DNA of 38,519 bases from an uncultured Candidatus Saccharibacteria bacterium (GCA_964562675.1 CAZLUG010000005.1:1-38519); one strand, 5' to 3'; counted from the stretch's first letter, positions 5,925 through 35,867 are shown. A program made the numbers and translations. Notes: generated by a model from the letters alone, not told the origin.

Positions 5925-6977
5925 ATGTTAAAACTTGATTATCCAAAAATTTATAACAGCATCGTTCAAGATTTACCAACTCACCGAAAAGAAGTTTTGG
6001 AGAGAAGGTTTGGTTTAGGTAAATTTCCTCAGAGAGAAACTCTCCAATCAATTGGAAATCGATTTGGGGTTACACGTGAAAGAATTCGCCAGATAGAGAA
6101 GAATAACTTAGAATTGCTGGCTAAAAGAAGCAGAAACGAAAAACTGAAAGAACTTTTTTCGTATTTTGAAAATTATCTTTCAAAACGAGGGGGTTTTCGA
6201 AGAGAAGATTTGCTTTTAGACGACTTAGCAGGTGGAGAGAACCATAACTATATTTATTTCTTTTTGAACTTTGCCCCTAAATTTTCTCGTTTTTTAGAAA
6301 CGGAAGATTATTATACTTTTTGGAGTTACAAGAAAAGTATCGAAGAAAAAATTAGAAACCTCTTACAAGATCTTTTAGATAAACTTCAAGACAAGGGCAG
6401 GCCGTTGGAAATCGAAGAATTGGGGAAGTTTTATCCTCGATTTACTTCCGTCCGCCTTTTCTCTTTAATTGAGGTGGCAAAAAGGATTGAAAAGGGGATA
6501 GATGGAAAATATGGGTTAATTGATTGGCCGGAAATTCTTCCAAAAACTGCTCGTGATAAAATTTATATTATTTTAAAAAGGACAGGCAAACCTCTCCATT
6601 TTACAAAGATTGCTGAGCTGTGCAATAATTTGAATAGTGAATTAAATATCCCTCATTTACATTCCAAGAGAAAAATTTTACCGCAAACAGCCCATAATGA
6701 GCTTATTAGAGATGAAAGATTTGTCTTGGTCGGACGTGGTCTTTACGCTCTTAAAGAATGGGGCTACCAACCTGGGACAGTCTTTGAAGTTGTTCAACGC
6801 ATTCTCAAAAATAGCCAGCGTCCTCTTTCACAGGAAGAAATTTTAAACTTAGTACGCAAACAAAGAATTGTGAAAGAAAATACAATATTGCTTGCGTTAA
6901 ACAACAAAGATAATTTCTTCAGAGACCAAGAGGGAAGATATAGAATTAAAACTCATAGGTCTTCTCGGTCTCTCTGA
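5925..6977 (+). CDS. sigma-70 region-4 HTH plus C-terminal HARE-HTH domain protein (not a complete sigma factor)
   Basis: 350 aa. The N-terminus EVLERRFGL...ETLQSIGNRFGVTRERIRQIEKNNLELL matches sigma-70 region 4.2. The C-terminus (IYIILKRTGKPLHFTKIAELCN ... FVLVGRGLYALKEWGY) looks like the HARE-HTH of the RNAP delta subunit. No region 2 is present. Confidence 0.75.
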   Translation: MLKLDYPKIYNSIVQDLPTHRKEVLERRFGLGKFPQRETLQSIGNRFGVTRERIRQIEKNNLELLAKRSRNEKLKELFSYFENYLSKRGGFRREDLLLDDLAGGENHNYIYFFLNFAPKFSRFLETEDYYTFWSYKKSIEEKIRNLLQDLLDKLQDKGRPLEIEELGKFYPRFTSVRLFSLIEVAKRIEKGIDGKYGLIDWPEILPKTARDKIYIILKRTGKPLHFTKIAELCNNLNSELNIPHLHSKRKILPQTAHNELIRDERFVLVGRGLYALKEWGYQPGTVFEVVQRILKNSQRPLSQEEILNLVRKQRIVKENTILLALNNKDNFFRDQEGRYRIKTHRSSRSL

Positions 6978-7014
6978 GGGAAATTTTTTCTTAGTTACCT
7001 AGGCCAATAATTTT

Positions 7015-8304
7015 ATGGAGACTTATACTCCGTTAGTGATTATTCTTTCTTCACTTTTAGGTTTTCTCATTAATGTTTTAAAAGCTTGGTGGTGGATTTT
7101 GCCGCCGTTGATTTTAATTGAACCTTTAAAATTTCTTTACCTTTGGTATATTCGGCAGAAATGGGCGCAAGGAATCCATTACATTGTTCTGGAAATAAAA
7201 TTTCCGCGGGAAATAGAACGTCCCTTTAAAGCCATGGAGCAGGTTATGGCTAATTTTTGGACCTTATATGACCCGCCGAATTGGAAAGAAAAATGGATTC
7301 TCGGACATTTTCTCTTAAGTTTTGCCATGGAAATAGTAAGTATTGGCGGGGAAATTCATTTTCTTTTGAGGGTGCCAAAAAGTTTGCGGGATATGTTTGA
7401 AAGACCTATTTATTCTCAATATCCTGATGCAGAAATTTCCCAGGTTGAAGACTATGCCAAAAAGGTTCCTCAAAATATTCCTAATAAGGATTGGGATTTA
7501 TTTGGCTGGGATTTTCAATTAATCAGAGACAGTTGCTACCCCATCAAAACTTATTCAATGTTTTTTGAAGAAAATCCATCCCTGAAAGAAGAAAAACGCT
7601 TAAGCCCATTAACTTCTCTTTTAGAAGGAATGGCGGCTCTTAAATCCGATGAACAGCTGTGGTTTCAAATTATTGCCAAGCCCATTTTAAACGAAGTTCC
7701 TTGGATGACCCAAGGGAAAGAAACCATTGCTAAACTTGTTCATCGGCCTCCGAAGCCTCAGCCAAAGTCTATTATTGGAGAGGCAACTAATATTCTTATT
7801 GGAGGCGCGCCGAGCAAGGAAGAAGAAAAAAAAGAGGAAATCATTCCTCCGGAAATGCGTTTAACTCCTGGAGAAAGGGAAGTGGTTTCCGCCATTGAGA
7901 ATAAAATTTCCAAGCAGGGCTTTGAAACAAATATTAGAATGATTTACTTAGCTGAAAAGAAAGACTTTTTCAAACCGCGGGTTAAAATTCCTCTCAACTT
8001 TTCAGTGAGCGTTTCAACAATGAACCTTAACGGCTTTAAGCCCTGGAAACAAACTATGGCAAGAGTTGTAAAACCGGCTTTTTTTCGGGGGATTAAACTT
8101 TATAAGCGGAAAAGAAGATTATTCCGCCACTATGTTCACCGCTGGCCCCCGATGTTTCCTCGAAGCGGCGGAACTTTTGTTTTAAATACCGAAGAACTTG
8201 CCACTTTGTATCACTTCCCTAGCGAAGAAGCTGCTCCGACTGCTAATCTTGCCCGGATAGAAGCAAGGAAAGGAAGCGCACCGAGTAATCTTCCGGTAGA
8301 ATAA
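7015..8304 (+). CDS. membrane-anchored protein of unknown function (two N-terminal TM helices plus ~380-aa cytoplasmic part)
   Basis: 429 aa. Hydrophobic hairpin TPLVIILSSLLGFLINVL / WWILPPLILIEPLKFLYLWYI. Pro/Lys and Glu/Lys linkers (HRPPKPQPKS, SKEEEKKEEIIPPE). Basic patch KLYKRKRRLFRHYVHRWPP. C-terminal LNTEELATLYHFPSEE. I recognise no family. Confidence 0.8.
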   Translation: METYTPLVIILSSLLGFLINVLKAWWWILPPLILIEPLKFLYLWYIRQKWAQGIHYIVLEIKFPREIERPFKAMEQVMANFWTLYDPPNWKEKWILGHFLLSFAMEIVSIGGEIHFLLRVPKSLRDMFERPIYSQYPDAEISQVEDYAKKVPQNIPNKDWDLFGWDFQLIRDSCYPIKTYSMFFEENPSLKEEKRLSPLTSLLEGMAALKSDEQLWFQIIAKPILNEVPWMTQGKETIAKLVHRPPKPQPKSIIGEATNILIGGAPSKEEEKKEEIIPPEMRLTPGEREVVSAIENKISKQGFETNIRMIYLAEKKDFFKPRVKIPLNFSVSVSTMNLNGFKPWKQTMARVVKPAFFRGIKLYKRKRRLFRHYVHRWPPMFPRSGGTFVLNTEELATLYHFPSEEAAPTANLARIEARKGSAPSNLPVE

Positions 8305-8430
8305 AAATTTAAATTTGCTGGCAAAAAATACAATGATTTATCTTTAGAAAATTGATGTAATACTTGATAAGATAAGAATCATAATTTTTGGATTTTTAGA
8401 TTATTAGAGCCAAGAACTTAGTTAGAGGAT

Positions 8431-10167
8431 ATGTCTGAAATAAATTTTTTTGGAAAAACATCTTTCCGCCAAGAGCATAGAAAATTTGGGATTAAACCTG
8501 ATGATAGAAGGCGCCATCTTTATATTATTGGGAAAACCGGTATGGGGAAAACCGCTCTTTTAAAAAACATGGCTATTCAAGATATCAGAGCAGGGAAAGG
8601 TATTGGATTTATTGATCCCCACGGAGAAGCCGCTGACGATTTATTAAATTTTGTGCCAAAAGAGAGGATTCAAGACGTGATTTACTTTAACCCGGGAGAT
8701 ATTGATTATCCGATAGCTTTTAACGTAATGGAGAAAGTAAGTGTGGCGCATCGCCATTTAGTGGCCTCTGGTTTAATGGGAGTATTCAAAAAACTTTGGC
8801 CTGATGTTTGGTCAGCGCGGATGGAATATATTTTAAATAATTCTATTTTAGCTCTTCTAGAATATCCAGGGTCTACTCTTTTGGGAATTAATAGATTATT
8901 AGCTGACCAGGATTTCCGCCAGAAAGTTATTGATAAAATAACAGACCCTGTTATTAAAGCTTTTTGGACGAAAGAATTTGCCAGATACACTCAACGTTAT
9001 GAAATTGAAGCAACTGCAGCTATTCAAAACAAGATCGGCCAATTTATTTCTGCTCCTTTAATTAGAAATATTATTGGTCAAGTCAATTCTTCTATTGATA
9101 TGCGAAAAGTTATGGATGAAGGAAAAATCTTGATTGTGAATTTATCAAAGGGAGCAATCGGCGAAGATCCTTCCCGGCTTTTAGGAGGTTTACTGATAAC
9201 CAAACTTCAATTAGCTGCTATGTCAAGGGTGAATATTCCCGAAAAAGAGAGGCGGGATTTTTATCTTTACGTTGATGAATTTCAGAATTTTGCCACAGAA
9301 TCTTTTATCAACATTTTATCAGAAGCAAGAAAATATAGGCTGGACCTAATTTTAGCAAACCAATATATCAGCCAGATGGAAGAAGGAGTGCGGGACGCGG
9401 TTTTTGGCAACGTCGGGACGATTATTTCTTTTCGGGTGGGAGCGGAAGACGCAGAATATTTAGAAAAAGAATTTGTTCCTGACTTTATGGCTAGCGATTT
9501 AGTAAATTTACCAAAGTATCACGTATACTTAAAACTTATGGTTGATGGAGTAGCCGGCCGTCCGTTTTCAGCTATTACTTTAAGCCCTTTCCAAGAGGAA
9601 GAAAAATCATACCGAGATAAAATTATAGATTTTTCCCGTAGCCAATACGGCACAAAAAAGGAAATTATTGAAGAGGCCATGACTAAATGGGCAGGAAGTT
9701 ATATCAATCAGCGCACCCCCTCGCACGGTCAAAATTCTTCCCCGGTACTTTACGATGCGCAATGCCAAAATTGCGGAAAGTGGATAAAAGTTCCTTTTAA
9801 ACCGGATGGAGTAAGACCGATTTATTGCAAATCCTGCCTCAAAAAGCTTAATCAGGAAAAAAACTCAGAGAAAAGCCAACAAGGAAAATTACCAGAACAA
9901 AGCCGGCCAAGTACCGAGGGGATTAAAACAGTTTCTTTGGAGAATCTTTTAGAAAAAACGCCCATTTCTTTCGTTAAAAAGAAAGGAGGCGAAAATTTGG
10001 AGAAAGAGACAAAAAGAAAAAAAGAGAAAAAGAGTGTTTCTCTTGACGAGCTGCATAAAGTTTTGGAAGAATCGTTAAAACAGAAGTCGGGAAATAAAAA
10101 TTCGCAAAATATTAAAAAACGCGGTATAATCAAACCAGGAGAAACTATAAATTTTCCTCAAGAGTAA
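8431..10167 (+). CDS. soluble type-IV-coupling-protein (TraD/VirD4)/HerA-like P-loop ATPase with C-terminal 4-Cys zinc ribbon and K/E-rich tail
   Basis: 578 aa. Walker A IIGKTGMGKTALL and Walker B DFYLYVDEFQNF. A TraG-D_C-like block SEARKYRLDLILANQYISQM...GNVGTIISFRVG. No TM helix. CQNC...(17 aa)...CKSC lies at codons 445-469. One of very few genes here with an SD-like AGAGGA upstream. Confidence 0.85.
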   Translation: MSEINFFGKTSFRQEHRKFGIKPDDRRRHLYIIGKTGMGKTALLKNMAIQDIRAGKGIGFIDPHGEAADDLLNFVPKERIQDVIYFNPGDIDYPIAFNVMEKVSVAHRHLVASGLMGVFKKLWPDVWSARMEYILNNSILALLEYPGSTLLGINRLLADQDFRQKVIDKITDPVIKAFWTKEFARYTQRYEIEATAAIQNKIGQFISAPLIRNIIGQVNSSIDMRKVMDEGKILIVNLSKGAIGEDPSRLLGGLLITKLQLAAMSRVNIPEKERRDFYLYVDEFQNFATESFINILSEARKYRLDLILANQYISQMEEGVRDAVFGNVGTIISFRVGAEDAEYLEKEFVPDFMASDLVNLPKYHVYLKLMVDGVAGRPFSAITLSPFQEEEKSYRDKIIDFSRSQYGTKKEIIEEAMTKWAGSYINQRTPSHGQNSSPVLYDAQCQNCGKWIKVPFKPDGVRPIYCKSCLKKLNQEKNSEKSQQGKLPEQSRPSTEGIKTVSLENLLEKTPISFVKKKGGENLEKETKRKKEKKSVSLDELHKVLEESLKQKSGNKNSQNIKKRGIIKPGETINFPQE

Positions 10168-10245
10168 ATGTTTGATAATTTTCTTTGCCATATTTGTATT
10201 TTCTCCCTTCAACTTCTATATATTTAATATCCCCTATATTATTTT

Positions 10246-11430
10246 ATGTTTAAAACAGTTGAAGATATTCCCCTTAAAGGGAAAAGAGTAATTTTGCGGG
10301 CAGATTTTAATGTTCCGATGGCGGGAGATAATATTTTAGATGACTTTAGGATAAGAAAAATTATCCCGACCATTGAATACCTTAAATCGCATAAAGCAAA
10401 GATTATTATCATAAGCCATTTAGGGAGACCGTTAAATGACCCTCGCTTATCTAAAAATTGGAGAAATTATAGTTTAAAGCCAATTGCCTTAAAGTTAGAA
10501 GAGCTTTTAAAGACACCGGTAGGATTTATCAATGATTGCTGCGGAAGAGCTGTTGTCAAAAAGATAGAAAAAATCAAGGAAGGCGACATTGTTCTTTTGG
10601 AAAATTTAAGATTTTATGCAGGCGAGGAGAAAAATTCGCCGGATTTTGCAAAAAAACTAGCAAAACTTGGTGAATTATATGTTTCTGAGGCATTTAGCGT
10701 TAGCCATCGGCTTCACGCTTCAATTGTTATTCTTCCCCGTTTGATGCCCCGCGCTGTTGGTTTTGCCTTTGCGGAAGAAGTAAAAGTTCTTTCAAAGCTT
10801 CGCGATAAACCATTGCGGCCTTATGTGGTGATTATTGGAGGAGCAAAGATTGCTTCAAAAATGAAAGCAGTCCAGAAACTTTTGAAAAAAGCTGATTATT
10901 TGCTTTTTGGCGGGAAAACAGCAAATGTTATTTTGCGGGTGAAGGGAATTTGTGTAGGCAAGCCTTGGCCGGATAACGAAGAGGCAGTGAAAGAAATTAA
11001 ACAACTAAAACTTACTAATACCGCTATTCATCTGCCGGTAGATGTAATAGTTTCTCCGGATAGAAGCGGAAAAGTTTATCTCAGAGATATTGGGCCAGGC
11101 AAAGTGAGAAAGGACGAAAATATTTTTGATATAGGCAAAGAAACAGTCAAGACTTTTAATAAAATTATTGCGGAGGCGAAAACAATTGTTTGGGCAGGAC
11201 CTTTAGGGTTAATTGAGGAAAAACAATTCCAAGCAGGCACAAAAGGCATTATCGAGTCTATTTCGAGAAACCATCAAGCTTTTAAGGTAGCAGGAGGAGG
11301 GGATACAATAGAGACCATTCAAAACTTAAGTTCTCTGAAAAGATTTTCTTATATTTCAACGGGGGGAAGCGCAATGTTATTTTTCTTAGCGGGAGAAAAG
11401 TTGCCCGGCATTGAAGCGTTAAAGGGCTAA
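10246..11430 (+). CDS. pgk: phosphoglycerate kinase
   Basis: 394 aa. RADFNVP, ISHLGRP, LENLRF and a C-terminal STGGGA-type motif (ISTGGSAMLFFLAG). Confidence 0.97.
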   Translation: MFKTVEDIPLKGKRVILRADFNVPMAGDNILDDFRIRKIIPTIEYLKSHKAKIIIISHLGRPLNDPRLSKNWRNYSLKPIALKLEELLKTPVGFINDCCGRAVVKKIEKIKEGDIVLLENLRFYAGEEKNSPDFAKKLAKLGELYVSEAFSVSHRLHASIVILPRLMPRAVGFAFAEEVKVLSKLRDKPLRPYVVIIGGAKIASKMKAVQKLLKKADYLLFGGKTANVILRVKGICVGKPWPDNEEAVKEIKQLKLTNTAIHLPVDVIVSPDRSGKVYLRDIGPGKVRKDENIFDIGKETVKTFNKIIAEAKTIVWAGPLGLIEEKQFQAGTKGIIESISRNHQAFKVAGGGDTIETIQNLSSLKRFSYISTGGSAMLFFLAGEKLPGIEALKG

Positions 11431-11507
11431 GGAAATAATCAATAAGGTGGACATTTTAAACAACTTGGCCTTTGTTCTAATTTGGCCTAAGAATAATTTT
11501 TTATTTT

Positions 11508-12659
11508 ATGGAAGAAATTAAAAACCTTCAAAAAGCAGCTCAACGAATTAAGAAAGCCATTAAGCAAAAAGAAAGAATTTTGCTTTTTGGCGACTCTGAC
11601 TTAGACGGCACAACCTCAGTGATTTTATTACAAGAAACAATTGAAAGCTTTGGGGGCAAAGTAACCGCAATTTATTTTCCCAACAGAGATAAAGAAGGTT
11701 ATGGACTGCAGGATTCTTCGCTTAAATTTTTTCGTAAGTATGCTCCGGCTCTTCTTTGCACCCTTGATTGCGGTATTGGAAATGTCAAATCGTTGGCTAA
11801 GGCTAAAAAGATGCATTTTGACACTTTGGTTATCGACCATCATGAGGTCTTAGAAAAACTTCCTCCGGCTTCTATTATTGTTGACCCGAAACAAACAAAG
11901 GGAGATTCAAATCTTAAAGCATTAGCTAATGTTGGAGTTACTTATAAACTTTGCCAAGCTTTATTTAATCATCATCTTTCTTCCAGCCTAAAACAAAGTT
12001 TTTTAGAATTAGTAGCGCTTGGTACATTAGCAGATAAAATGCCCGAGGTGGGTGATAATAAAATTTTTATACGGGAAGGTTTAAATACTTTTCCCCAGAG
12101 TTTTAGAGAGGGGATAAAGACAAGTTTTGAAATAGCTAGACAATCCGGCGGTTCATTGCGGGAGGTAGTTTCAAGAATGATTTCCGCTTTAAACATTACT
12201 CCTCTTTCTCGGCACCTGACAGGCACTTACGAGATTTTAACAAAGAACAATCCGAAAGAGGTTAGGGAGCTTGCAGAGAAACTTTTCCTTGCCGCCAAAG
12301 AACGCCAAGCAAAAATTAGAAAACTCACCGAAGAGGTGGAAAATAAAGTTTCCCAAGATGATATTTTGGTTTTTCAAGGAAACCGCAGCCTACCATTAAT
12401 TTTAGCAGGAGCAGTTGCTTCCAGGATTTGCAATAGATTTCAGAAACCCGTTTTTGTTTACCACTTAAAAACAAAAGAAAGCATAGGATCAGTGAGAGTG
12501 CCTCGAGGAGTAGACAGCGTTGAAGCGATGAGAAGTTGTCGAAAATTATTAAAAATGTATGGCGGGCATCCGGCAGCATCTGGCTTTACGGTTGAAAATA
12601 AAAATCTTAAGAAATTTAAACATTGTTTGGAAAAATATTTTCAATCACTTCAGAAATGA
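11508..12659 (+). CDS. DHH/DHHA1 phosphoesterase, compact RecJ-like exonuclease core
   Basis: 383 aa. Motifs LLFGDSDLDGTTS, DCGIGN, VIDHHE and GGHPAASGF (DHHA1). No OB or C-terminal domains (E. coli RecJ is 577 aa). Confidence 0.85.
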   Translation: MEEIKNLQKAAQRIKKAIKQKERILLFGDSDLDGTTSVILLQETIESFGGKVTAIYFPNRDKEGYGLQDSSLKFFRKYAPALLCTLDCGIGNVKSLAKAKKMHFDTLVIDHHEVLEKLPPASIIVDPKQTKGDSNLKALANVGVTYKLCQALFNHHLSSSLKQSFLELVALGTLADKMPEVGDNKIFIREGLNTFPQSFREGIKTSFEIARQSGGSLREVVSRMISALNITPLSRHLTGTYEILTKNNPKEVRELAEKLFLAAKERQAKIRKLTEEVENKVSQDDILVFQGNRSLPLILAGAVASRICNRFQKPVFVYHLKTKESIGSVRVPRGVDSVEAMRSCRKLLKMYGGHPAASGFTVENKNLKKFKHCLEKYFQSLQK

Positions 12660-12671
12660 TATTTCTGTTTT

Positions 12672-13112
12672 ATGAAGAAAATAAAAGTTTATATTGATGG
12701 AGGAGCAAGGGGCAATCCCGGTCCGGCTGCTTTAGGGGTAGCAGTTATTTCTGAGACTGGACAAGTTTTAAAAAAATATGGCAAATTTTTAGGGCGCACC
12801 ACAAATAATGAAGCAGAATACCAAGCTTTAATTTTTGCTTTAAAAAAGCTAAAATTAATCTTTGGGAAAGAGAAGATAAAAAGCTTATTCATTGAAATTT
12901 CATCAGACTCTCAGCTTTTAGTCGGGCAAATGACCGGGCGTTATAAAGTAATCAACCAAAGAATTCAAAATCTTTTTCTTCAGGCCTGGAATTTAAAAAC
13001 TGAGTTTAAACATTTGAGCTTTTTATTTGTTCCTCGAGAACAAAATAAACTAGCTGATAAGCTAGTCAACGAAGCTTTAGACAACAACGAGACGTCTCAA
13101 ACACTTTTTTAA
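12672..13112 (+). CDS. rnhA: ribonuclease HI family protein
   Basis: 146 aa. DEDD catalytic pattern: YIDGGARGNPGPA, TNNEAEYQALIFAL, SDSQLLVGQM and REQNKLADKLVNEAL. Starts 12 nt after the RecJ-like gene. Confidence 0.85.
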   Translation: MKKIKVYIDGGARGNPGPAALGVAVISETGQVLKKYGKFLGRTTNNEAEYQALIFALKKLKLIFGKEKIKSLFIEISSDSQLLVGQMTGRYKVINQRIQNLFLQAWNLKTEFKHLSFLFVPREQNKLADKLVNEALDNNETSQTLF

Positions 13113-13137
13113 CTATTTAATAATTATTTTCCCTAAT

Positions 13138-14886
13138 ATGTCTGCAAAAAAATTATTTATAATATTTCTTTTCATCATCTTTGTTGGCGGGGGAGCGGCT
13201 GGTTATTGGTATTACAAAAGATTAAATTTTTCTAAAGGACTTTTAAAAGTAGAAATTTTAGGTCCTCAGTATCCGCAGGCCGGTGATGAAGTGGAATACT
13301 TAGTACGGTATAAAAATAACGGAAATATCACTCTTGAAGACGCCAATCTTACTTTCCAATTTCCTAATAACGCTGTTCCAGCACAGAATGGAAAATTAAT
13401 AGAGCAAAAGAAAATAGGGATAATTTATCCTGGCGAAGAAAAAAGCCTCAGTTTTAAAGCTGTTCTCTTCGGACAAAAAGGAGACATCTTAACGGCTCAT
13501 GCCAATATCAGCTATCATCCAAAAGACTTAAGAACTGTTTATCAGTCCCCGACAACTTTTACTTGTCAAATTAAATATGTTCCGTTGAATTTTGAATTTG
13601 ATTTGCCCTCAAAAATAGAATCAGGACAGAAACTAGCCTTTTCTTTAAACTATTTTTCTAACTTTTCCCATCCCTTAGAAAATTTGCGGGTGAGAATAGA
13701 ATATCCAAGTGATTTCCAGTTTCAAGACTCTGAACCAAAAGCTCTGGATGCTACGACCTGGCCATTGCCTTTAGTTAACTCAAGTAATGGAGGGAAAATA
13801 AAAATTACGGGCAAAATTAATGGAATTATCGGCCAGCAAAAAATTTTTAAAGCTCAAATTGGGGTTGTCAGAAATAGTAATTTTATAGTTTTGAAAAAGA
13901 TAGCTCAATCAGTGGAGATTGCTGAGTCATCTTTATATATTTCCCAATTAGTTAACGGTTTGCCTAATTATAGCGCTGATTTTAACGAAACCCTGCACTA
14001 TGAAGTTTTCTTTAAAAATGTCGGCAAGGCACCCCTCGAAAGAAAATTTATTATTGTTAAACTTAATAGTCCGATTTTTGACCTGGGAAGTTTGCAATCC
14101 AAAACTGGATCTTGGGGAAAAGGCGATAATACTATTATATTTGACTGGAAAAAAGTTCCCCAAATACGTTTTCTAGATGTGGGAGAAGAAGGGGAAGTGG
14201 ATTTTTGGATTAATACCAAGAAATTAAACCCTGACCAACATCTTAGTAATCCTATTTTGCAAGACGCTGTTTCTATTGGAGGTATGAATAAAAATTTTAA
14301 GATAAATATTCACTCCACTTTGGCCTTAGCGCAAAAATTGTACTTTAAAGATTCAAATATACTCTCATCTATTGCTTCGACAACTGCTAGTTCCACCGCA
14401 TCTGCTTTTGCAACCTCATCCGAAAATTTAAAAGCTTTTTCGGGTTTTTCCAATCAAGGTCCGCTTCCCCCAAGAGTATCTCAATCTACAACTTATACAG
14501 TTTTGTGGGAAGTAAAAAATACGTGCAATGAAGTAGATAATTTAAGGATTAAAAGTATTCTTCCCGAAAATGTAAAATTTACAGGAAAAGTTTTTCCCCA
14601 GAATGCTCGAGTAACCTTTGACCAAAAAAGTCGAGAAGTTTTTTGGAACGTTAACCAGATTAAACCTTGGCAGGGTTTTCAAGAACCACCCTTAGTGCTA
14701 GTTTTCCAGATTAGTTTTACTCCTTTAGCTCAAGACCGAGGGGCAACCCATCTTTTACTGGGAAAAACTGAAATTACCGGAGAAGATAAATTTACCGGAG
14801 AAACTTTGAGAGCCCAAGCATCCCAGATAGACACAACATTGCCGGATGATAAAACTGTGAGCAATGCTCAGGGTGTTGTGCAATAA
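13138..14886 (+). CDS. N-terminally anchored extracytoplasmic protein with ~4 CARDB/DUF11-like Ig-fold repeats
   Basis: 582 aa. A single N-terminal TM helix (LFIIFLFIIFVGGGAAGYWYY). A recurring beta-sandwich signature (EVEYLVRYKNNGNITLEDANLTFQFP; LAFSLNYFSNFSHPLENLRVRIEYP; LHYEVFFKNVGKAPLERKFIIVKL; YTVLWEVKNTCNEVDNLRIKSILP). A Ser/Thr/Ala linker SSIASTTASSTASAFATSS. No LPXTG motif. Confidence 0.8.
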   Translation: MSAKKLFIIFLFIIFVGGGAAGYWYYKRLNFSKGLLKVEILGPQYPQAGDEVEYLVRYKNNGNITLEDANLTFQFPNNAVPAQNGKLIEQKKIGIIYPGEEKSLSFKAVLFGQKGDILTAHANISYHPKDLRTVYQSPTTFTCQIKYVPLNFEFDLPSKIESGQKLAFSLNYFSNFSHPLENLRVRIEYPSDFQFQDSEPKALDATTWPLPLVNSSNGGKIKITGKINGIIGQQKIFKAQIGVVRNSNFIVLKKIAQSVEIAESSLYISQLVNGLPNYSADFNETLHYEVFFKNVGKAPLERKFIIVKLNSPIFDLGSLQSKTGSWGKGDNTIIFDWKKVPQIRFLDVGEEGEVDFWINTKKLNPDQHLSNPILQDAVSIGGMNKNFKINIHSTLALAQKLYFKDSNILSSIASTTASSTASAFATSSENLKAFSGFSNQGPLPPRVSQSTTYTVLWEVKNTCNEVDNLRIKSILPENVKFTGKVFPQNARVTFDQKSREVFWNVNQIKPWQGFQEPPLVLVFQISFTPLAQDRGATHLLLGKTEITGEDKFTGETLRAQASQIDTTLPDDKTVSNAQGVVQ

Positions 14887-14909
14887 AACTAAAAAATGAT
14901 TAAATAATC

Positions 14910-16241
14910 ATGGACCAAACTCAAAAAATTATTTCTTTAGCCAAACGCCGTGGATTTATTACTCCTTCATCAGAAATTTATGGCGGATTGAATGGCGTTT
15001 ATGATTTTGGTTATTTGGGGGTTGAGCTTAAAAACAACCTTAAAGAACTTTGGCGGAAAGAAATGCTCTATCACCATCAGCATATTTTTGGATTTGACGC
15101 CGCTATTTTGATGTCAAAAAAAGTCTGGCAAGCATCCGGCCATCTTGGAGCGGGTTTTGCCGATAATTTAGTTGAATGTAAGAACTGCCATAAAAGGTTT
15201 AAAAAAGATGAGATTAAGGGGAATAACTGTCCAGTTTGTGGCGGAGAATTAACTCTCCCAAAGAAATTTAATCTTATGATGCATGTTTCCCTGGGTGCTG
15301 TTGAAGACAATGGTTCAGAGGCTTATTTGAGGCCGGAAACCTGCCAGGGTATTTTTGTTAATTTTAAGTCAATTTTGAATACCACAAGAACAAAAATACC
15401 TTTTGGAGTAGCCCAAATTGGAAAATCATTTCGCAATGAAATTAATCCTAAAAATTTCGTCTTTCGCATGCGGGAATTTGAACAAATGGAAATGGAGTGG
15501 TTTTGCAAACCCGAGGATGCTGATAAGTTTTTTGATTATTGGGAAAAAGAAAGGTTGAAATGGTATTCAAATTTAGGTATTCGGAAGGAAAATATTAAAG
15601 CCGAGGAGATTCCTCAATCCGAAAGAGCACATTACGCCCGCCGGCAAGTGGATATCCTTTACCATTTTCCTTTTGGCTGGAAAGAAATAGAAGGAATCCA
15701 TAATCGAGGGGATTGGGATTTGTCTAATCATTCAAAGTTCTCGGGGGAAGATTTAAGTTATTTCGATGAAGAAACAAACCAAAGATATTTCCCGCACATT
15801 ATTGAGACCTCTGTAGGCGTAGAGAGAGCTTTATTTGCTTTTCTTTGCGAAAGTTATCAAGAAATTTCCGGCGGAAGATCCGGCAGTGGCAAACCAACCA
15901 GTAAAGCCGAAATTTTATTAAAACTGCCCAAAAAACTCTCGCCGATTAAAGTAGCTGTTTTGCCTCTGGTTAAGAATAAAGAAGATTTGACAAAAAAAGC
16001 TGAAGAAATTTACATGCTTTTAAAACCTCACTTTGCTTCTCAATACGACACCTTAGGTTCTATCGGGAGACGTTACCGGAGACAAGATGAAATAGGAACG
16101 CCGTTTTGCGTGACTGTTGATTTTGATACTTTAAATAACAATGATGTTACTTTACGTGACCGAGACACGATGGCGCAAGAGAGAGTTAAAATAAAAGACT
16201 TAATTAAGATTTTAGACGAAAAACTTTCTTCAGAGCGCTAA
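14910..16241 (+). CDS. glyQS: glycine--tRNA ligase (alpha2 type)
   Basis: 443 aa. RPETCQGIFVNF, FRNEINPKNFVFRMREFEQMEMEWF, a Zn-like CKNCHKRF...CPVCGG insertion and a C-terminal anticodon-binding domain. Confidence 0.96.
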   Translation: MDQTQKIISLAKRRGFITPSSEIYGGLNGVYDFGYLGVELKNNLKELWRKEMLYHHQHIFGFDAAILMSKKVWQASGHLGAGFADNLVECKNCHKRFKKDEIKGNNCPVCGGELTLPKKFNLMMHVSLGAVEDNGSEAYLRPETCQGIFVNFKSILNTTRTKIPFGVAQIGKSFRNEINPKNFVFRMREFEQMEMEWFCKPEDADKFFDYWEKERLKWYSNLGIRKENIKAEEIPQSERAHYARRQVDILYHFPFGWKEIEGIHNRGDWDLSNHSKFSGEDLSYFDEETNQRYFPHIIETSVGVERALFAFLCESYQEISGGRSGSGKPTSKAEILLKLPKKLSPIKVAVLPLVKNKEDLTKKAEEIYMLLKPHFASQYDTLGSIGRRYRRQDEIGTPFCVTVDFDTLNNNDVTLRDRDTMAQERVKIKDLIKILDEKLSSER

Positions 16242-24285: not shown

Positions 24286-26376
24286 TTAATGATTGCTCAA
24301 TTTCTTTATTTCTTCTTCAGTTGCCTTTTTTGAAAAATCGCAATCTTTATTTGAACACTTTATAAGCTTTCTCCTTTGGTCATAGACTAGCAAAGAATGG
24401 CATTTTGGGCAAGTTTCTTTTAAGGGTTTATCCCAGAGCGCGAAATCGCATTTTGGCCAGCGAGAACAGGCATAGAAAATTTTACCCTTTTTTGTCCGCT
24501 TTTCAATAATGTCGCCAATTTTACATTTTGGGCATTTAATCCCCAGTGTTTTTTTCTCTAGAGGAGCGGTGTACCTGCATTTAGGAAAATTTGTGCAGGC
24601 ATAAAATTTTCCATAGCGGCCAAGCTTAATAATTAAAGGAGCCCCGCACTTTGGACACTTTTTATTTGTTTTTTCTTCGGCAATTTTTTGTTTAGAGAGC
24701 TCTTTATATTTCTTTTTAAGTTGGTTGGAAAAAGGCGTGTAAAATTGCCTAATAAGTTCTTGCCATTTTTCTTTTCCTTGGGCTACTTTGTCTAAATTTT
24801 TTTCTAAGTTGGCGGTAAATTTGAGGTCGACTATTTTTGGAAAATGATTTTCTAAAAGATGATTAACGACTTTGCCAAGATCGGTTGGTTCGAATTTCCT
24901 GTTTTGGTTTTTTTGAACGTAGCCTCTTAACTGAATTGTTGAAACAATAGGAGCGTAAGTAGAAGGGCGCCCGATTTCTTCTTTTTCTAATGTTTTAATG
25001 AGGCTGGCTTCGGTGTAACGAGCCGGTGGTTTTGTAAAATGTTGTCCGGGGACAAGTTTTTCTAATTCTAGATTTTCTTTAAGAGCAAGGGGAGGCAGCT
25101 TTTTTTCCTCGAACTTTAGCGGATAAACTTTCAAAAATCCTTCAAACTTTAAAGTTTGGCCGGAAGCTCTAAAAATATAGTCTTTAGCTTTAATATCTAC
25201 TGTTAAAGAATCGAATTTTGCTTGGCTCATTTGTGAAGCGATAAATCTTTTCCAAATAAGCTCAAAAAGCGAAGTTTCCCGATGGTCTAATTTCATCTTT
25301 GCTTGAATTTCCTGGGGAGTTTGATTTGGTTTGGTTGGTCGAATGGCCTCGTGAGCTTCTTGGGCGCTTTTTGATTTTGTTTTGTATTTTCTAAATTGGT
25401 AGTAACTTTCCCCAAATATTTTTGTGATGAATTCTTTTGCCTTTGCTAAAGATTCGTTTGAGAGGTTTAAAGAATCCGTGCGGTGATAGGTGATAATACC
25501 CCGCTCGTAAAGGATTTGTGCAAGCCGCATAGTAAATTTTGCTGACCAATGAAACTTTTGCCAAGCCTCTTGCTGAAGTGTACTTGTGGTGAAAGGGGGA
25601 AGAGGATTTCTTTTGACCTCTTTTTTTGCCAAGCTTTTAATTTGGTAGGGAGCGCCTTTTAACCTCTGAATAACCGCCTCCGCGTCAGCCCCTTTCTTAA
25701 GAGCAAATTTTGAGAGGGTTTTATTTTTTTCTTTGATTAAAACTGCTTCGAATTGATTTTGTTCTTGGCTTTTATTGGTTTTTTTTCTCAAAACAGCAGT
25801 AATTGTCCAATATTCCTGGGGTTTGAAAGCCTCAATTTCTTTTTCTCTTTCGCAAATTAGTTTTAAAGCAACCGATTGGACTCTTCCTGCCGATAACCCC
25901 CGGGCAACTTTTTTCCAGAGAAGAGGGGAAAGCTTATAGCCGACAAGCCTGTCTAAAATTCTTCTTGCTTGTTGAGCTTGGACAAGATTTGTATTAATCC
26001 GGCGGGGATTCTTTAAAGCTTTAATGATAGCGGATTTAGTTATTTCGTGGAAAACGATTCGTTGGTAATCTCGGGGAGTTTTGGGGCTCAAAACTTGAGC
26101 AATATGCCAAGCGATAGCCTCGCCTTCCCGGTCTTCATCAGAAGCCAAGATAATTTCTTTTTTATCTTTTGCTTCTTCTTTAAGTTGCCGGACGACGCGA
26201 CGCGCTTTTAGAGGAATGATGTATTTTGGCTCGAAATTATTTTCAACATCAACTCCTAACTCACTTTTGGGGAGATCACGTATATGGCCAAAAGAAGCAA
26301 TGACCTTGTATCCCGGACCGAGAAATTTACTGATCGTTTTTGATTTAGTGGGGCTCTCGACGATAATGAGTTTCAT
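24286..26376 (-). CDS. topA: DNA topoisomerase I
   Basis: 696 aa. TOPRIM domain (LIIVESPTKSKTI, ASDEDREGEAIAWH), the YHRTDS active-site Tyr region, and three C-terminal CxxC...CxxC zinc ribbons. Confidence 0.97.
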   Translation of the reverse strand: MKLIIVESPTKSKTISKFLGPGYKVIASFGHIRDLPKSELGVDVENNFEPKYIIPLKARRVVRQLKEEAKDKKEIILASDEDREGEAIAWHIAQVLSPKTPRDYQRIVFHEITKSAIIKALKNPRRINTNLVQAQQARRILDRLVGYKLSPLLWKKVARGLSAGRVQSVALKLICEREKEIEAFKPQEYWTITAVLRKKTNKSQEQNQFEAVLIKEKNKTLSKFALKKGADAEAVIQRLKGAPYQIKSLAKKEVKRNPLPPFTTSTLQQEAWQKFHWSAKFTMRLAQILYERGIITYHRTDSLNLSNESLAKAKEFITKIFGESYYQFRKYKTKSKSAQEAHEAIRPTKPNQTPQEIQAKMKLDHRETSLFELIWKRFIASQMSQAKFDSLTVDIKAKDYIFRASGQTLKFEGFLKVYPLKFEEKKLPPLALKENLELEKLVPGQHFTKPPARYTEASLIKTLEKEEIGRPSTYAPIVSTIQLRGYVQKNQNRKFEPTDLGKVVNHLLENHFPKIVDLKFTANLEKNLDKVAQGKEKWQELIRQFYTPFSNQLKKKYKELSKQKIAEEKTNKKCPKCGAPLIIKLGRYGKFYACTNFPKCRYTAPLEKKTLGIKCPKCKIGDIIEKRTKKGKIFYACSRWPKCDFALWDKPLKETCPKCHSLLVYDQRRKLIKCSNKDCDFSKKATEEEIKKLSNH

Positions 26377-26413
26377 AAAACCTTAATAAAGATTAGTTGA
26401 ACGAGATTATTTT

Positions 26414-27298
26414 TTAAAAAAGATGACTGTTTTGTAAAGCGTAAAAACCTTGGCCAATGTTTTTTACTTTTCCTTCAATTTCCATAAAACTTAAGGTGGC
26501 AGAAACGATTTGGGGAGGAAGATTAGTTTTTTCAATAATTTTATCTGCTTGGAGGCTTTTGCTTTTTAAAACCTCAATAATCAAAGACTCTATTTTATTG
26601 TTTGGCTTTGGGCTAATCGATTTTTGCAATTTTGGTAATCCCAAATCTTGAAGAATATCACCTGCGCCCTCTACTAATTTTGCTCCCTTTTTAATCAGCT
26701 GATTGCATCCTTTTGAGTTTTCTGAATAAATTGAACCGGGGACAGCAAAGAGTTTTCTTTTTTGCTTTTTTGTCCAATCGGCAGTAATAAGAGCGCCGGA
26801 TTTTGATTTAGCTTCTACCACCAGAGTGCCTAGGCTTAAGCCGGAGATAATTCTATTTCTCTGAGGAAAAGAAAATTGTGTTCCTCGGGTGCCGGGAGGA
26901 TATTCAGAAAGTAAACATCCGCCCTGGGCTAGAATCTTTTTGGCAAGATTAAGGTTTTCTCGGGGATAAATAGTTTTATCGTCAATGCCTGTTCCCAAAA
27001 CAGCGATTGTTTTCCCCTGAGCCGCTAAAGCTCCCTGGTGGCTAAAACTATCAATCCCTCTGGCTAAGCCGCTGACGATTGTTAATCCGGCACTTGTCAA
27101 TTCCTTAGCTAAAGAGAAAGCGGTTCTTTTCCCGTATTCAGAACATCTTCGCGTACCGACAATGGCAAAACATTTTTCTTTTTCTGGCAGTTGTCCCCTG
27201 AAGTAAATAATTTTTGGCGGATTTGAGATTTTTTGCAAAAGAGACGGGTAATTTTCCTTTTCTCTATCAGAAACTTTTATGTCAAAAGATCTTTGCAT
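26414..27298 (-). CDS. dprA: DNA processing protein DprA (Smf)
   Basis: 294 aa. Rossmann-like core AIVGTRRCSEYGK, SGLARGIDSFSHQGAL, GTGIDDKTIYPREN and a C-terminal winged helix. dprA-topA adjacency as in Firmicutes. Confidence 0.93.
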   Translation of the reverse strand: MQRSFDIKVSDREKENYPSLLQKISNPPKIIYFRGQLPEKEKCFAIVGTRRCSEYGKRTAFSLAKELTSAGLTIVSGLARGIDSFSHQGALAAQGKTIAVLGTGIDDKTIYPRENLNLAKKILAQGGCLLSEYPPGTRGTQFSFPQRNRIISGLSLGTLVVEAKSKSGALITADWTKKQKRKLFAVPGSIYSENSKGCNQLIKKGAKLVEGAGDILQDLGLPKLQKSISPKPNNKIESLIIEVLKSKSLQADKIIEKTNLPPQIVSATLSFMEIEGKVKNIGQGFYALQNSHLF

Positions 27299-34509: not shown

Positions 34510-34528
34510 TTCTCTTTTGCTTGAATTT

Positions 34529-35461
34529 ATGAATTTCTCTCCAAGGATTAAAATTATCGGACTTGGCGGCTGCGGAGTGAATATGGTTTCTCAACTTGCC
34601 CACTCTCCGGGATTTGAGAAAGTTGAATTATGGGCTGCCAACACAGATGAACAATCTTTAAATATCTCTCCTGTTTCTCATAAGATATTGATAGGACCAG
34701 AGACAACTTTTGGTTTGGGGACAGGGATGGATTTAAAATTAGCCGAGAAAGCGGTCAAGGAATCGCTTCAGCAAATTGAGGAATCTTTAAAGGGCGCAGA
34801 CTTACTTTTTATTGCTTGCGGATTGGGAGGGGGAACAGGAACAGCAGCTGCTTCTTTAGTTGCTGAAGTTGCGCAGAAAATGCATATTTTAACTATCGCT
34901 GTTTTGACTACTCCTTTCTCTTTTGAAGGCGCTCAAAGGCAAAAGATTGCTAGATTAGGGCTTAAGAAGCTTCAAAATAATGTTGACAGCATTATTAATA
35001 TTTCGAATGACAAACTTTTAAAAGTGGTAGGAAAAAATACTTTGGTGAATTCAGCATTTCAAAAAGCCAACGATGTATTAAAACAAGCCATTTTGAGTAT
35101 TTCTGAGCTAGCTAATTCTTCAGGCATTATTGATGTTAATTTTGCTGATATTTGCCAAGTTCTAAAAAAATCAGGTGAAGCCCTTTTTGGCCAAGCTTCG
35201 GCGCGGGGGGAGAATAGAATTATTAAAGCGACCGAAGAAGCAGTCCATTCTCCTTTAGTGACTTTCCCCCTGGCGAAAGCGAAAGGTATTCTTTTAAATA
35301 TTACCGGCGGGGAAGATTTAACTTTGTTTGAGGTTAGATCTACAGCGGAGCTTTTGAAAAAATTAGTGTCCCCTAAAGCGAAAATAATTTTTGGAGCCTC
35401 CGAAAATAAAGCATTTGAAAAAGGAGAGATTAAAGTTACCGTCATTGCAACGGGCTTTTGA
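34529..35461 (+). CDS. ftsZ: cell division GTPase FtsZ (globular core only)
   Basis: The ORF is open from TTG 34517, and ATG 34529 gives MNFSPRIKIIGLGGCGVNMV. Tubulin signature GLGGGTGTAAA. Ends at ...IKVTVIATGF*, the end of the globular domain. Confidence 0.95.
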   Translation: MNFSPRIKIIGLGGCGVNMVSQLAHSPGFEKVELWAANTDEQSLNISPVSHKILIGPETTFGLGTGMDLKLAEKAVKESLQQIEESLKGADLLFIACGLGGGTGTAAASLVAEVAQKMHILTIAVLTTPFSFEGAQRQKIARLGLKKLQNNVDSIINISNDKLLKVVGKNTLVNSAFQKANDVLKQAILSISELANSSGIIDVNFADICQVLKKSGEALFGQASARGENRIIKATEEAVHSPLVTFPLAKAKGILLNITGGEDLTLFEVRSTAELLKKLVSPKAKIIFGASENKAFEKGEIKVTVIATGF

Positions 35462-35517: not shown

Positions 35518-35867
35518 AAGGGTGAGGGCAAAGCAGACAAGACAATCGCTCTTTAGGCAGTTTAAGTTGCTTAAAGAGAGGAAAGTCCGAACACCGCGCC
35601 GTAATTTTACGGCAAATGATAGCGGGTAACACCCGTCCGGAGTAATCCGCGAGGTGCGAACAGAGACGCCCGAGCGCGAAAGGGCAAGGGCATTCTATTG
35701 TAAAAATAGAATGAGTTCTCAGGGTAACCTGAGAAGTGAAACGGCTAAATCCTTATCTGGTGCAAGACCAAATTTGGTGGGTCGCTTGACCCCAAGAGTA
35801 ATTGAGGGGCTAGATAAATGATTGTCCTCGACAGAATTCGGCTTACTGTCTACTTTCCCTCACCCTT
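35518..35867 (+). ncRNA. rnpB: RNase P RNA, bacterial type A
   Basis: Universal P4 strands GAGGAAAGTCCG (35578-35589) and ACAGAATTCGGCTTAC (35831-35846). P1 pairs AAGGGTGAGGG (35518-35528) with CCCTCACCCTT (35857-35867). P2 is ACAATC/GATTGT. A P3 hairpin CTCTTTAGGCA...TGCTTAAAGAG. About 350 nt with no ORF. Confidence 0.92.

Follow-up and report, generated by a model that had tools for sequence, protein, structure and literature searches.

What is an ATPase of the type IV coupling protein (T4CP) class doing among housekeeping genes? The question is raised by two neighboring genes at positions 7015–10167 of a 38,519-nucleotide stretch of DNA from an uncultured Candidatus Saccharibacteria bacterium (GCA_964562675.1, CAZLUG010000005.1:1-38519), hereafter referred to as the window. 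The upstream gene encodes a 429-residue protein with a hydrophobic N-terminus, and the downstream gene encodes the ATPase. The initial annotation, made from the sequence alone, described an orphan two-gene module and proposed a split, membrane-docked, NTP-driven translocase, comparable to archaeal Ced-type DNA import or to coupling-protein-only systems. The ultra-small Patescibacteria represent a large share of bacterial diversity and need hosts for nucleotides and lipids, and very few of their molecular machines have been characterized. The analysis presented here identifies the pair, with a probability of roughly 0.6, as a domesticated, split T4CP of the VirD4/TrwB family that is inherited vertically. 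Of the earlier proposal, the coupling-protein class and the supply of the anchor in trans were retained, and the Ced-like or coupling-protein-only import was not supported.

The class of the motor half follows from the downstream product. The Walker A motif, the Walker B motif, and the TraG-D_C-like block reported in the initial annotation were all found, and the Pfam cutoffs were passed: TrwB_AAD_bind scored 38.7 bits (cutoff 20.5), and TraG-D_C scored 26.1 bits (cutoff 22) at residues 278–341. The DUF87/HerA match (28.6 bits, cutoff 23.2) was weaker and overlapped the T4CP match, and the top sequence match in the PDB was TrwB. Hydropathy analysis found no hydrophobic segment in the 578-residue protein, as had been noted earlier for its N-terminus. 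The ATPase also carries a zinc finger, matched by Pfam zf_Tbcl_2 (2.3e-12) and NCBIfam TIGR04272 (1.7e-12), with CxxC pairs at residues 445 and 466, and a lysine-rich tail; the last 148 residues of the protein contain 31 Lys and Arg against 18 Asp and Glu. Neither the zinc finger nor the tail was mentioned in the initial annotation.

Other classes of ATPase were considered and rejected. VirB4 was excluded since the window ATPase has no AAA_10 or CagE_TrbE_VirB match and reaches only 16 bits against the cutoff of 590 for NCBIfam VirB4_plasma. FtsK/SpoIIIE was excluded since neither the FtsK_SpoIIIE motor nor the gamma domain of Pfam matches it. For a HerA-NurA system, the DUF87 match is weaker than the T4CP match, no NurA gene occurs in the window, and the HerA structure 8xau scores only 0.019. 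For Ced DNA import, NCBIfam CedD gives 26 bits against a cutoff of 600, in the Walker A region only, and no Ced membrane genes were found; since a chromosomal VirB4-type type IV secretion system (T4SS) has been reported in about 80% of Patescibacteria genomes (PMC12102498), a cognate channel may exist, and coupling-protein-only import is likewise unsupported. MADS Mad8, part of an eight-gene operon (mad1–mad8), was rejected since a scan of the three module proteins (the pair and the product of the gene upstream) gave no further mad gene, the other open reading frames (ORFs) of the window are housekeeping genes by Pfam, and the family is core.

The 429-residue protein, which could not be assigned to any family in the initial annotation, is a member of Pfam PF26449 (DUF8128); the window protein (P0001) and most of its homologs come with a precomputed PF26449.1 tag. 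A direct Pfam scan was empty because the Pfam copy used for it did not contain the PF26449 model. Direct NCBIfam and PADLOC scans of the protein and a sequence-profile search of the PDB with the DUF8128 alignment gave no match. At least 3,789 homologs were present in a large protein collection, the best 120 at 49–73% identity, and a profile search among cluster representatives gave 2,784 clusters at 50% identity, 926 of them with E < 1e-30. DUF8128 occurs in at least 572 species-representative genomes, and all 80 of those retrieved were Patescibacteria; 41 alignment columns are invariant across 31 sequences. DUF8128 is one of the most widespread protein families of Patescibacteria, and the description of the module as an orphan does not hold.

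At the N-terminus of the DUF8128 protein, the conserved element is Trp-rich, of the form WWWxPLPFILF...LYLWYI. On the Kyte-Doolittle scale, the window protein rises above the threshold in its first hydrophobic stretch alone, and in most homologs this stretch falls below it; in the AlphaFold model (predicted local distance difference test, pLDDT, 79.5; predicted template-modeling score, pTM, 0.76), residues 4–53 form one continuous helix. The tight hairpin of two transmembrane (TM) helices described in the initial annotation is therefore not established. Hydropathy, alignment, and model together point to a real anchor of one or two spans. An alpha/beta domain comes after the anchor. Near the C-terminus lies the motif LNTEELATLYHFP, in which N391, E394, A396, and H400 are invariant. 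It sits just ahead of where fused homologs go on into the ATPase, and it is kept in those homologs and in a Bacillus plasmid protein.

These fused homologs indicate that the pair is one protein in two pieces. A search with a chimeric query that placed the ATPase after the DUF8128 protein yielded three independent fused clusters, P0391 (956 residues), P0392 (975 residues), and P0410 (941 residues). Each carries PF26449 and then PF10412 and covers 99–100% of the query. The fusion junction ...NLPIEGSTEDLTIFAQTNFRE...GKTGMGKT matches the ...NLPVE at the end of the DUF8128 protein of the window and the MSEINFFGKTSFRQ...GKTGMGKT at the start of its ATPase, and the fused proteins pass from ...NLPIE into ...FAQTNFRE...GKTGMGKT where the window has a stop codon, a spacer, and a start codon. 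Because the natural fusions join the halves exactly at the gene boundary of the window, the two genes are, as far as can be judged from sequence, halves of one T4CP-family protein that was split by gene fission. The initial annotation had suggested a search for fused lineages, and its treatment of the pair as one functional unit is upheld both by these fusions and by the adjacency described below.

The fused proteins belong to a distant lineage, as judged from their low identity to unfused homologs, which is 23–30% in the DUF8128 part (27% to that of the window) and 50–55% in the motor half. They have no zinc finger, and their tail is rich in Arg and Lys. A predicted model of a fused homolog reached a pLDDT of 65.6 and a pTM of 0.46, with a disordered junction. 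In a Foldseek search, its motor half matched Cagbeta (E = 6e-7) and TrwB, at 0.43–0.46 in target-normalised TM-score, and a helical run with good local pLDDT (residues 533–642), which may correspond to the all-alpha domain of T4CPs, lies between Walker A and Walker B. Paceibacteria-type genomes carry the protein in its split form, and other lineages of Patescibacteria carry it fused, with Saccharimonadia placed on the fused side by architecture.

The association of the halves is maintained across species. The ATPase gene lies next to the DUF8128 gene, downstream and on the same strand, in 71 of the 74 species loci with enough downstream sequence, so the adjacency that the initial annotation had set as a test was confirmed. 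A stop codon separates the two genes in all 72 informative loci, with a median spacer of 17.5 nt. The order secD-secF-sigma4/HARE-DUF8128-ATPase-pgk-DHH is syntenic in most loci, across species. By mean identity, the ATPase is the most conserved gene of this block, at 64% (69 species loci), as compared with 55% for SecD, 50% for SecF, and 45% each for Pgk and DUF8128. This pattern argues for a chromosomal, vertically inherited pair under strong purifying selection, in line with the earlier remark that the pair is not an obvious conjugative element: it is near-universal and syntenic, with no mobile-element genes or flanking repeats in the window.

The three loci without a downstream ATPase are L077, L056, and L068, the last of which has only about 660 nt of downstream sequence. 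In L077 (9278–10597) and L056 (333–1622), the DUF8128 copy has neither an ATPase nor a sigma4/HARE neighbor; in the former, a gene for a 168-residue membrane protein comes next and FtsZ and GalU lie upstream, and in the latter, a Fic-domain gene lies downstream. These two copies may be paralogs or may belong to rearranged loci.

A third gene, referred to here as sigma4/HARE, is constant as well. Its product matches Pfam Sigma70_r4 (1.9e-9) and HARE-HTH (7.3e-7), and the gene is found directly upstream of the DUF8128 gene in 70 of 72 loci and likewise in both fused loci examined, though their other neighbors differ. In Southlakia epibionticum, the ortholog SEML1_0294 lies upstream of SEML1_0293. 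The earlier suggestion that this gene belongs to the same unit is thereby supported. When the family profile was compared with the PDB, it matched region 4 of RpoS/RpoD at about 1e-17, and some of the chains matched were solved together with the beta-flap-tip helix; the HARE-HTH part matched the RNA polymerase delta subunit family (NCBIfam TIGR04567, 1.4e-6). A diverged replication-relaxation protein was considered for this gene and rejected, as hhalign was negative against the Bacillus and Streptomyces proteins. The protein has no sigma region 2 or 3, yet its Southlakia ortholog is annotated as RpoS; that ortholog is essential and enriched in Patescibacteria. It looks like an uncharacterized RNA-polymerase-associated factor in its own right.

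The fold of the DUF8128 protein gives a further indication. When the model was compared with the PDB using Foldseek, all seven matches at E ≤ 0.001 were to TrwK, the VirB4 of the R388 T4SS, with probabilities of 0.99–1.00, E-values of about 1e-4, query-normalised TM-scores of about 0.34, and sequence identities of 8–9%. The eighth match was also a TrwK chain (probability 0.80), and TrwK/VirB4 is the only confident match of the protein among solved structures. Since the DUF8128 protein has no P-loop, the match would be to the N-terminal domain of VirB4. Full-length VirB4 also aligns over 801–861 columns of the fused-homolog model, that is, over both halves. Among viral structures (BFVD), Gp156 of Bacillus phage G matched the DUF8128 model at E = 2e-17 with a query-normalised TM-score of 0.51, and proteins of phages JL and Slash matched as well (entries G3MBM2, S5MSQ0, and U5Q0H6 for G, JL, and Slash). 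These phage proteins of 551–913 residues share the DUF8128 fold and are far better matches than VirB4.

The ancestry of the pair can be approached through plasmid relatives. A tblastn search of plasmids with a fused protein gave 857 records in Bacillus, Pseudomonas, Streptomyces, haloarchaea, and Sulfolobus, and many matches start within the DUF8128 part. On the Bacillus subtilis plasmid NZ_OX419568.1 (L083/L085, record positions 6111–15743), the relative is WP_213380696.1, a 913-residue protein annotated as "DUF87 domain-containing protein"; immediately after it comes a replication-relaxation family gene, and TcpC, TcpE, and an AAA_10 VirB4-like ATPase lie beyond. With hhalign, columns 111–435 of DUF8128, including the ELATLYHFP motif, aligned to residues 58–312 of this protein (probability 96.3%, E = 1.9e-9). 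The same combination of ATPase and replication-relaxation gene occurs in a second phylum, on the Streptomyces avidinii plasmid NZ_CP108617.1 (L086, locus positions 7620–10749). Since the plasmid relatives share both the N-domain and the motor, DUF8128 plus motor can be placed as a subtype of monoderm coupling-type ATPase. These sequences are best explained by an origin of the lineage in the coupling-type ATPases of monoderm (Firmicutes/Actinobacteria) plasmids, in which N-domain and motor make up a single protein encoded beside a replication-relaxation gene. This agrees with published work (PMC12102498) that nests the Patescibacteria T4SS in the monoderm MPF-FATA class.

MOB-suite types these two plasmids as "non-mobilizable" in spite of the genes that they carry, which suggests an unrecognized transfer module. 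The nearest full-length relative outside Patescibacteria, on pFDU301A of Priestia megaterium (L084, 7001–10255), is split among several ORFs, apparently as a pseudogene, and is uninformative.

The module can be compared with known systems on this basis. With the T4CPs VirD4, TrwB, and Cagbeta, it has in common the Walker A and B motifs, the combination of TrwB_AAD_bind and TraG-D_C, and probably also a helical insert and membrane attachment at the N-terminal side. In contrast to them, the anchor belongs to a separate polypeptide and precedes a DUF8128 domain of about 350 residues that TrwB and VirD4 lack, and the ATPase ends in a zinc finger and a basic tail. The pair also has no adjacent relaxase or T4SS gene, and it is chromosomal, core, and vertically inherited. 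The Bacillus and Streptomyces plasmid ATPases have a homologous N-domain, the same order of N-domain and motor, and the shared ELAxxxxFP motif; however, each is encoded as one polypeptide on a mobile element, next to a putative relaxase and without a sigma4/HARE partner. Tcp-type transfer genes accompany the Bacillus plasmid ATPase, and the plasmid and phage relatives are themselves uncharacterized. VirB4 (TrwK of R388) resembles DUF8128 in fold, whereas the motor half matches T4CP families instead of AAA_10 or CagE_TrbE_VirB.

For the anchor in trans, TraI and TraJ of pIP501 offer a proposed precedent, as anchorage of the coupling protein by a separate small membrane protein has been put forward there (PMC12857230), as for DUF8128 and the ATPase. 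There are differences as well: TraI is small, with two TM helices and no large cytoplasmic domain, and the system is a plasmid-borne conjugation apparatus with a relaxase.

The ATPase of the window, the T4CP homologues counted in PMC12102498, and SEML1_0293 of Southlakia (PMC10633639) are the same protein family. In that survey, 5,713 T4CP homologues were found in 2,918 of 3,035 Patescibacteria genomes, and a possible exaptation was raised (PMC12102498); its supplement has no T4CP or VirB4 numbers per class. SEML1_0293 (2,766 nt, about 921 residues, PF10412 at residues 402–719) is core, enriched in Patescibacteria, and non-essential, with normalized reads in transposon sequencing (Tn-seq) of 5,817, 2,940, and then 1,372 (PMC10633639). 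The fall in reads suggests a mild fitness cost. What has been published is thus that the ATPase family is near-universal, lies away from virB4, may be exapted (PMC12102498), and is non-essential in Southlakia (PMC10633639). Neither of the two papers describes the DUF8128 half, its separation from or fusion to the motor, relatives of the N-domain in plasmids and phages, or sigma4/HARE as a constant neighbor, and literature searches for DUF8128 and PF26449 found no paper. These features appear to be undescribed so far. The near-universal T4CP homologue of Patescibacteria, which had been noted as unexplained, gains a second half in DUF8128 and a partner in sigma4/HARE, and the three-part module can be tested in Southlakia or TM7x, which are genetically tractable.

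In the preferred reading, a domesticated T4CP in two pieces, the DUF8128 protein would supply the membrane anchor and a docking domain with a VirB4-like N-terminal-domain fold and would tether the ATPase to the cytoplasmic membrane. The ATPase would assemble into a ring, as T4CPs do, use its helical insert, zinc finger, and basic tail to bind nucleic acid or nucleoprotein as a substrate, and spend ATP to pass this substrate to a membrane channel. The channel would most likely be the relaxase-less chromosomal T4SS carried elsewhere by most Patescibacteria genomes, which is favored because the N-domain is VirB4-like and of plasmid origin. VirB4 has been reported, as part of a chromosomal T4SS, in 2,417 of 3,035 genomes (about 80%) (PMC12102498), so a cognate channel may exist. 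The hand-over of the substrate would be conditionally useful, not essential. In Southlakia, the T4SS cluster is essential, and the authors of that study noted neither a coupling protein nor a relaxase there (PMC10633639). T4SS pilus biogenesis requires VirB4 and VirB11 and does not require VirD4 (PMC12857230), which would explain how an essential T4SS can coexist with a dispensable T4CP.

Several points weigh against this reading. Beyond a split ATPase of the T4CP family, we infer each of its steps. T4CP homologues occur in 96% of the surveyed genomes as against 80% for VirB4, and only 148 of the 5,713 genes lie near virB4 (PMC12102498); with this wider spread and separate encoding, the ATPase may work without a T4SS. 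Canonical conjugative DNA export is unlikely because relaxases are nearly absent from Patescibacteria, with only 109 in 103 genomes (PMC12102498). No relaxase or VirB4-type T4SS gene was found in the 38.5-kb window, nor is one reported for the called genes of either fused locus; the ±10-kb regions around the 80 related loci lie outside this T4SS screen. The resemblance to the VirB4 N-terminal domain is at the level of predicted folds only, at the TM-score of about 0.34 given above: a profile comparison of DUF8128 with the VirB4-like ATPase encoded on the Bacillus plasmid itself gave an hhalign probability of 0.2%. The model of the fused protein is too poor to show the arrangement of its domains, and the presence of a DUF8128 N-domain in SEML1_0293, hence its fused form, is deduced from length and domain positions.

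Some of these points favor the most serious alternative, a nucleic-acid translocase independent of any T4SS, which we consider unlikely. It would move DNA or RNA across or along the membrane, alone or with another channel such as ComEC, in natural transformation or nucleotide scavenging, with the sigma4/HARE protein as a DNA-binding adaptor. The greater prevalence of T4CP homologues over VirB4, their location away from virB4, and the scarcity of relaxases all fit such a role, as do the zinc finger and basic tail of the ATPase and the constant linkage to a protein with several helix-turn-helix domains. In Southlakia, the T4SS is essential and the ATPase is not, and the competence machinery is dispensable likewise (PMC11665869). 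On the other side, part of the difference between 96% and 80% may stem from incomplete assemblies, and the docking domain of VirB4-like fold and the plasmid ancestry favor a T4SS platform. No competence gene is linked to the pair: dprA, which the initial annotation took as supporting context, lies 16 kb away on the other strand beside topA, so that link is not meaningful. Moreover, we know of no T4CP that works with ComEC.

A stronger form of this alternative would make sigma4/HARE, DUF8128, and the ATPase a self-contained, phylum-wide, membrane-tethered machine that moves nucleic acid without a T4SS, which we regard as doubtful. If it were true, such a T4SS-free trio, guided by an essential RNA-polymerase- or DNA-binding factor, would import, export, or reposition nucleic acid, for example, host-derived DNA as a source of nucleotides in organisms unable to make them.

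The constancy of the sigma4/HARE gene also raises the possibility that no transport is involved and that the ATPase acts with this protein as a remodeler on RNA polymerase or chromosomal DNA at the membrane. The adjacency persists across classes even where other synteny has gone, the N-terminus of the partner matches sigma region 4, including the chains with the beta-flap-tip helix, and the delta subunit of RNA polymerase has the HARE-HTH fold. However, adjacency alone is no proof of physical interaction. SEML1_0294 is essential in Southlakia (PMC10633639) and the ATPase is not, so the functions are at least partly separable. A membrane anchor combined with a T4CP fold has, to our knowledge, no precedent in transcription. 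We therefore hold this explanation to be improbable.

A substitute for FtsK, pumping DNA from a membrane anchor so that the chromosome is cleared or segregated when the cell divides, could be suggested by the membership of the ATPase in the FtsK/HerA superfamily, the ftsA, ftsZ, and divIC genes in the window, and the very strong conservation. It is largely refuted and has very little probability left: Southlakia has an essential canonical FtsK (SEML1_0096, with 4TM, alpha, beta, and gamma domains) beside its dispensable T4CP homolog (PMC10633639), most Patescibacteria bins were reported to encode FtsK/SpoIIIE in a KEGG-based survey (PMC10469934), and the corresponding Pfam domains are missing from the window ATPase, as described above.

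A decayed conjugative-element remnant or an anti-phage defense module, to which distant relatives in plasmid transfer loci and PADLOC matches of mad8 to the ATPase (7.8e-19) and of MzaA to the sigma4/HARE protein (3.2e-10) might point, is refuted for practical purposes, because the catalytic motifs are intact, the MzaA match is confined to sigma region 4, no other mad or mza genes were found among the module proteins scanned and no repeats or integrase in the window, and the conservation and synteny pattern of a near-universal core pair, whose ATPase is more conserved than SecD or Pgk, is not that of patchy defense islands and element remnants and therefore rules out a decaying mobile element.

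The coordinates of the features discussed above are collected in Table 1.

Table 1. Positions of the module genes and their internal features in the window.
Feature	Position	Strand	Basis
Sigma-70 region 4 (aa 15-63) and HARE-HTH (aa 212-279) gene, 350 aa	5925-6977	+	Pfam
DUF8128 gene, 429 aa	7015-8304	+	ORF call; PF26449 tag
Trp-rich hydrophobic N-terminal anchor, aa 1-47, KAWWWILPPLILIEPLKFLYLWYI	7015-7155	+	Hydropathy, alignment
LNTEELATLYHFP motif, aa 390-402, near C-terminus of DUF8128 protein	8182-8220	+	Alignment
Spacer between DUF8128 gene and ATPase gene, 126 nt	8305-8430	+	
Coupling-protein ATPase gene, 578 aa	8431-10167	+	ORF call; Pfam domains above cutoff
Walker A GKTGMGKT, aa 34-41	8530-8553	+	Motif search
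Walker B YLYVDE (aa 278-283) and TraG-D_C-like block (aa 278-341)	9262-9453	+	Motif, Pfam
CxxC-x17-CxxC treble-clef zinc finger, aa 440-472	9748-9846	+	Pfam, NCBIfam
Low-complexity Lys/Glu-rich tail	9847-10164	+	Composition

The two ORFs of the pair, their common strand, and the gap between them were borne out as first described, and ORF calls and domain scans likewise agreed on the neighbors, secD and secF upstream and pgk downstream. The sequence AGAGGA (8424–8429) stands in the spacer one base ahead of the ATPase ATG, and no terminator-like site was found within the spacer. The end of the sigma4/HARE gene and the start of the DUF8128 gene are separated by 37 nt. By Pfam, the window encodes HPF, SecA, SecD, SecF, Pgk, a DHH/DHHA1 protein, RNase H, several aminoacyl-tRNA synthetases, TopA, DprA, Mfd, LepB, YbeY, FtsA, FtsZ, LepA, and DivIC, and it is of housekeeping character throughout. 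Pfam scans of the 35 window ORFs of at least 100 residues gave no relaxase, VirB4, VirB6, or integrase, and no meaningful flanking repeats were found around the pair. The earlier statement on missing T4SS and mobile genes stands in these respects; as regards pilins, small genes would go below the size limit of 100 residues.

Some minor features of the window were also noted. A class A bacterial RNase P RNA is located at 35530–35860 on the plus strand (Rfam RF00010, 144.6 bits, full-length model match), filling the ORF-free gap between ftsZ (34517–35461) and lepA (35974–37815). Weak matches to DUF11 and DUF7619 are all that was obtained for a 582-residue protein encoded at 13138–14886 on the plus strand; it has an N-terminal hydrophobic segment and probably belongs to the cell surface. 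The topA and dprA genes are adjacent on the minus strand at 24286–27298, with dprA at 26414–27298. In Southlakia, topA and dprA (SEML1_0296 and SEML1_0298) also lie near the sigma4/HARE and ATPase genes, and this shared proximity may simply be ancient synteny.

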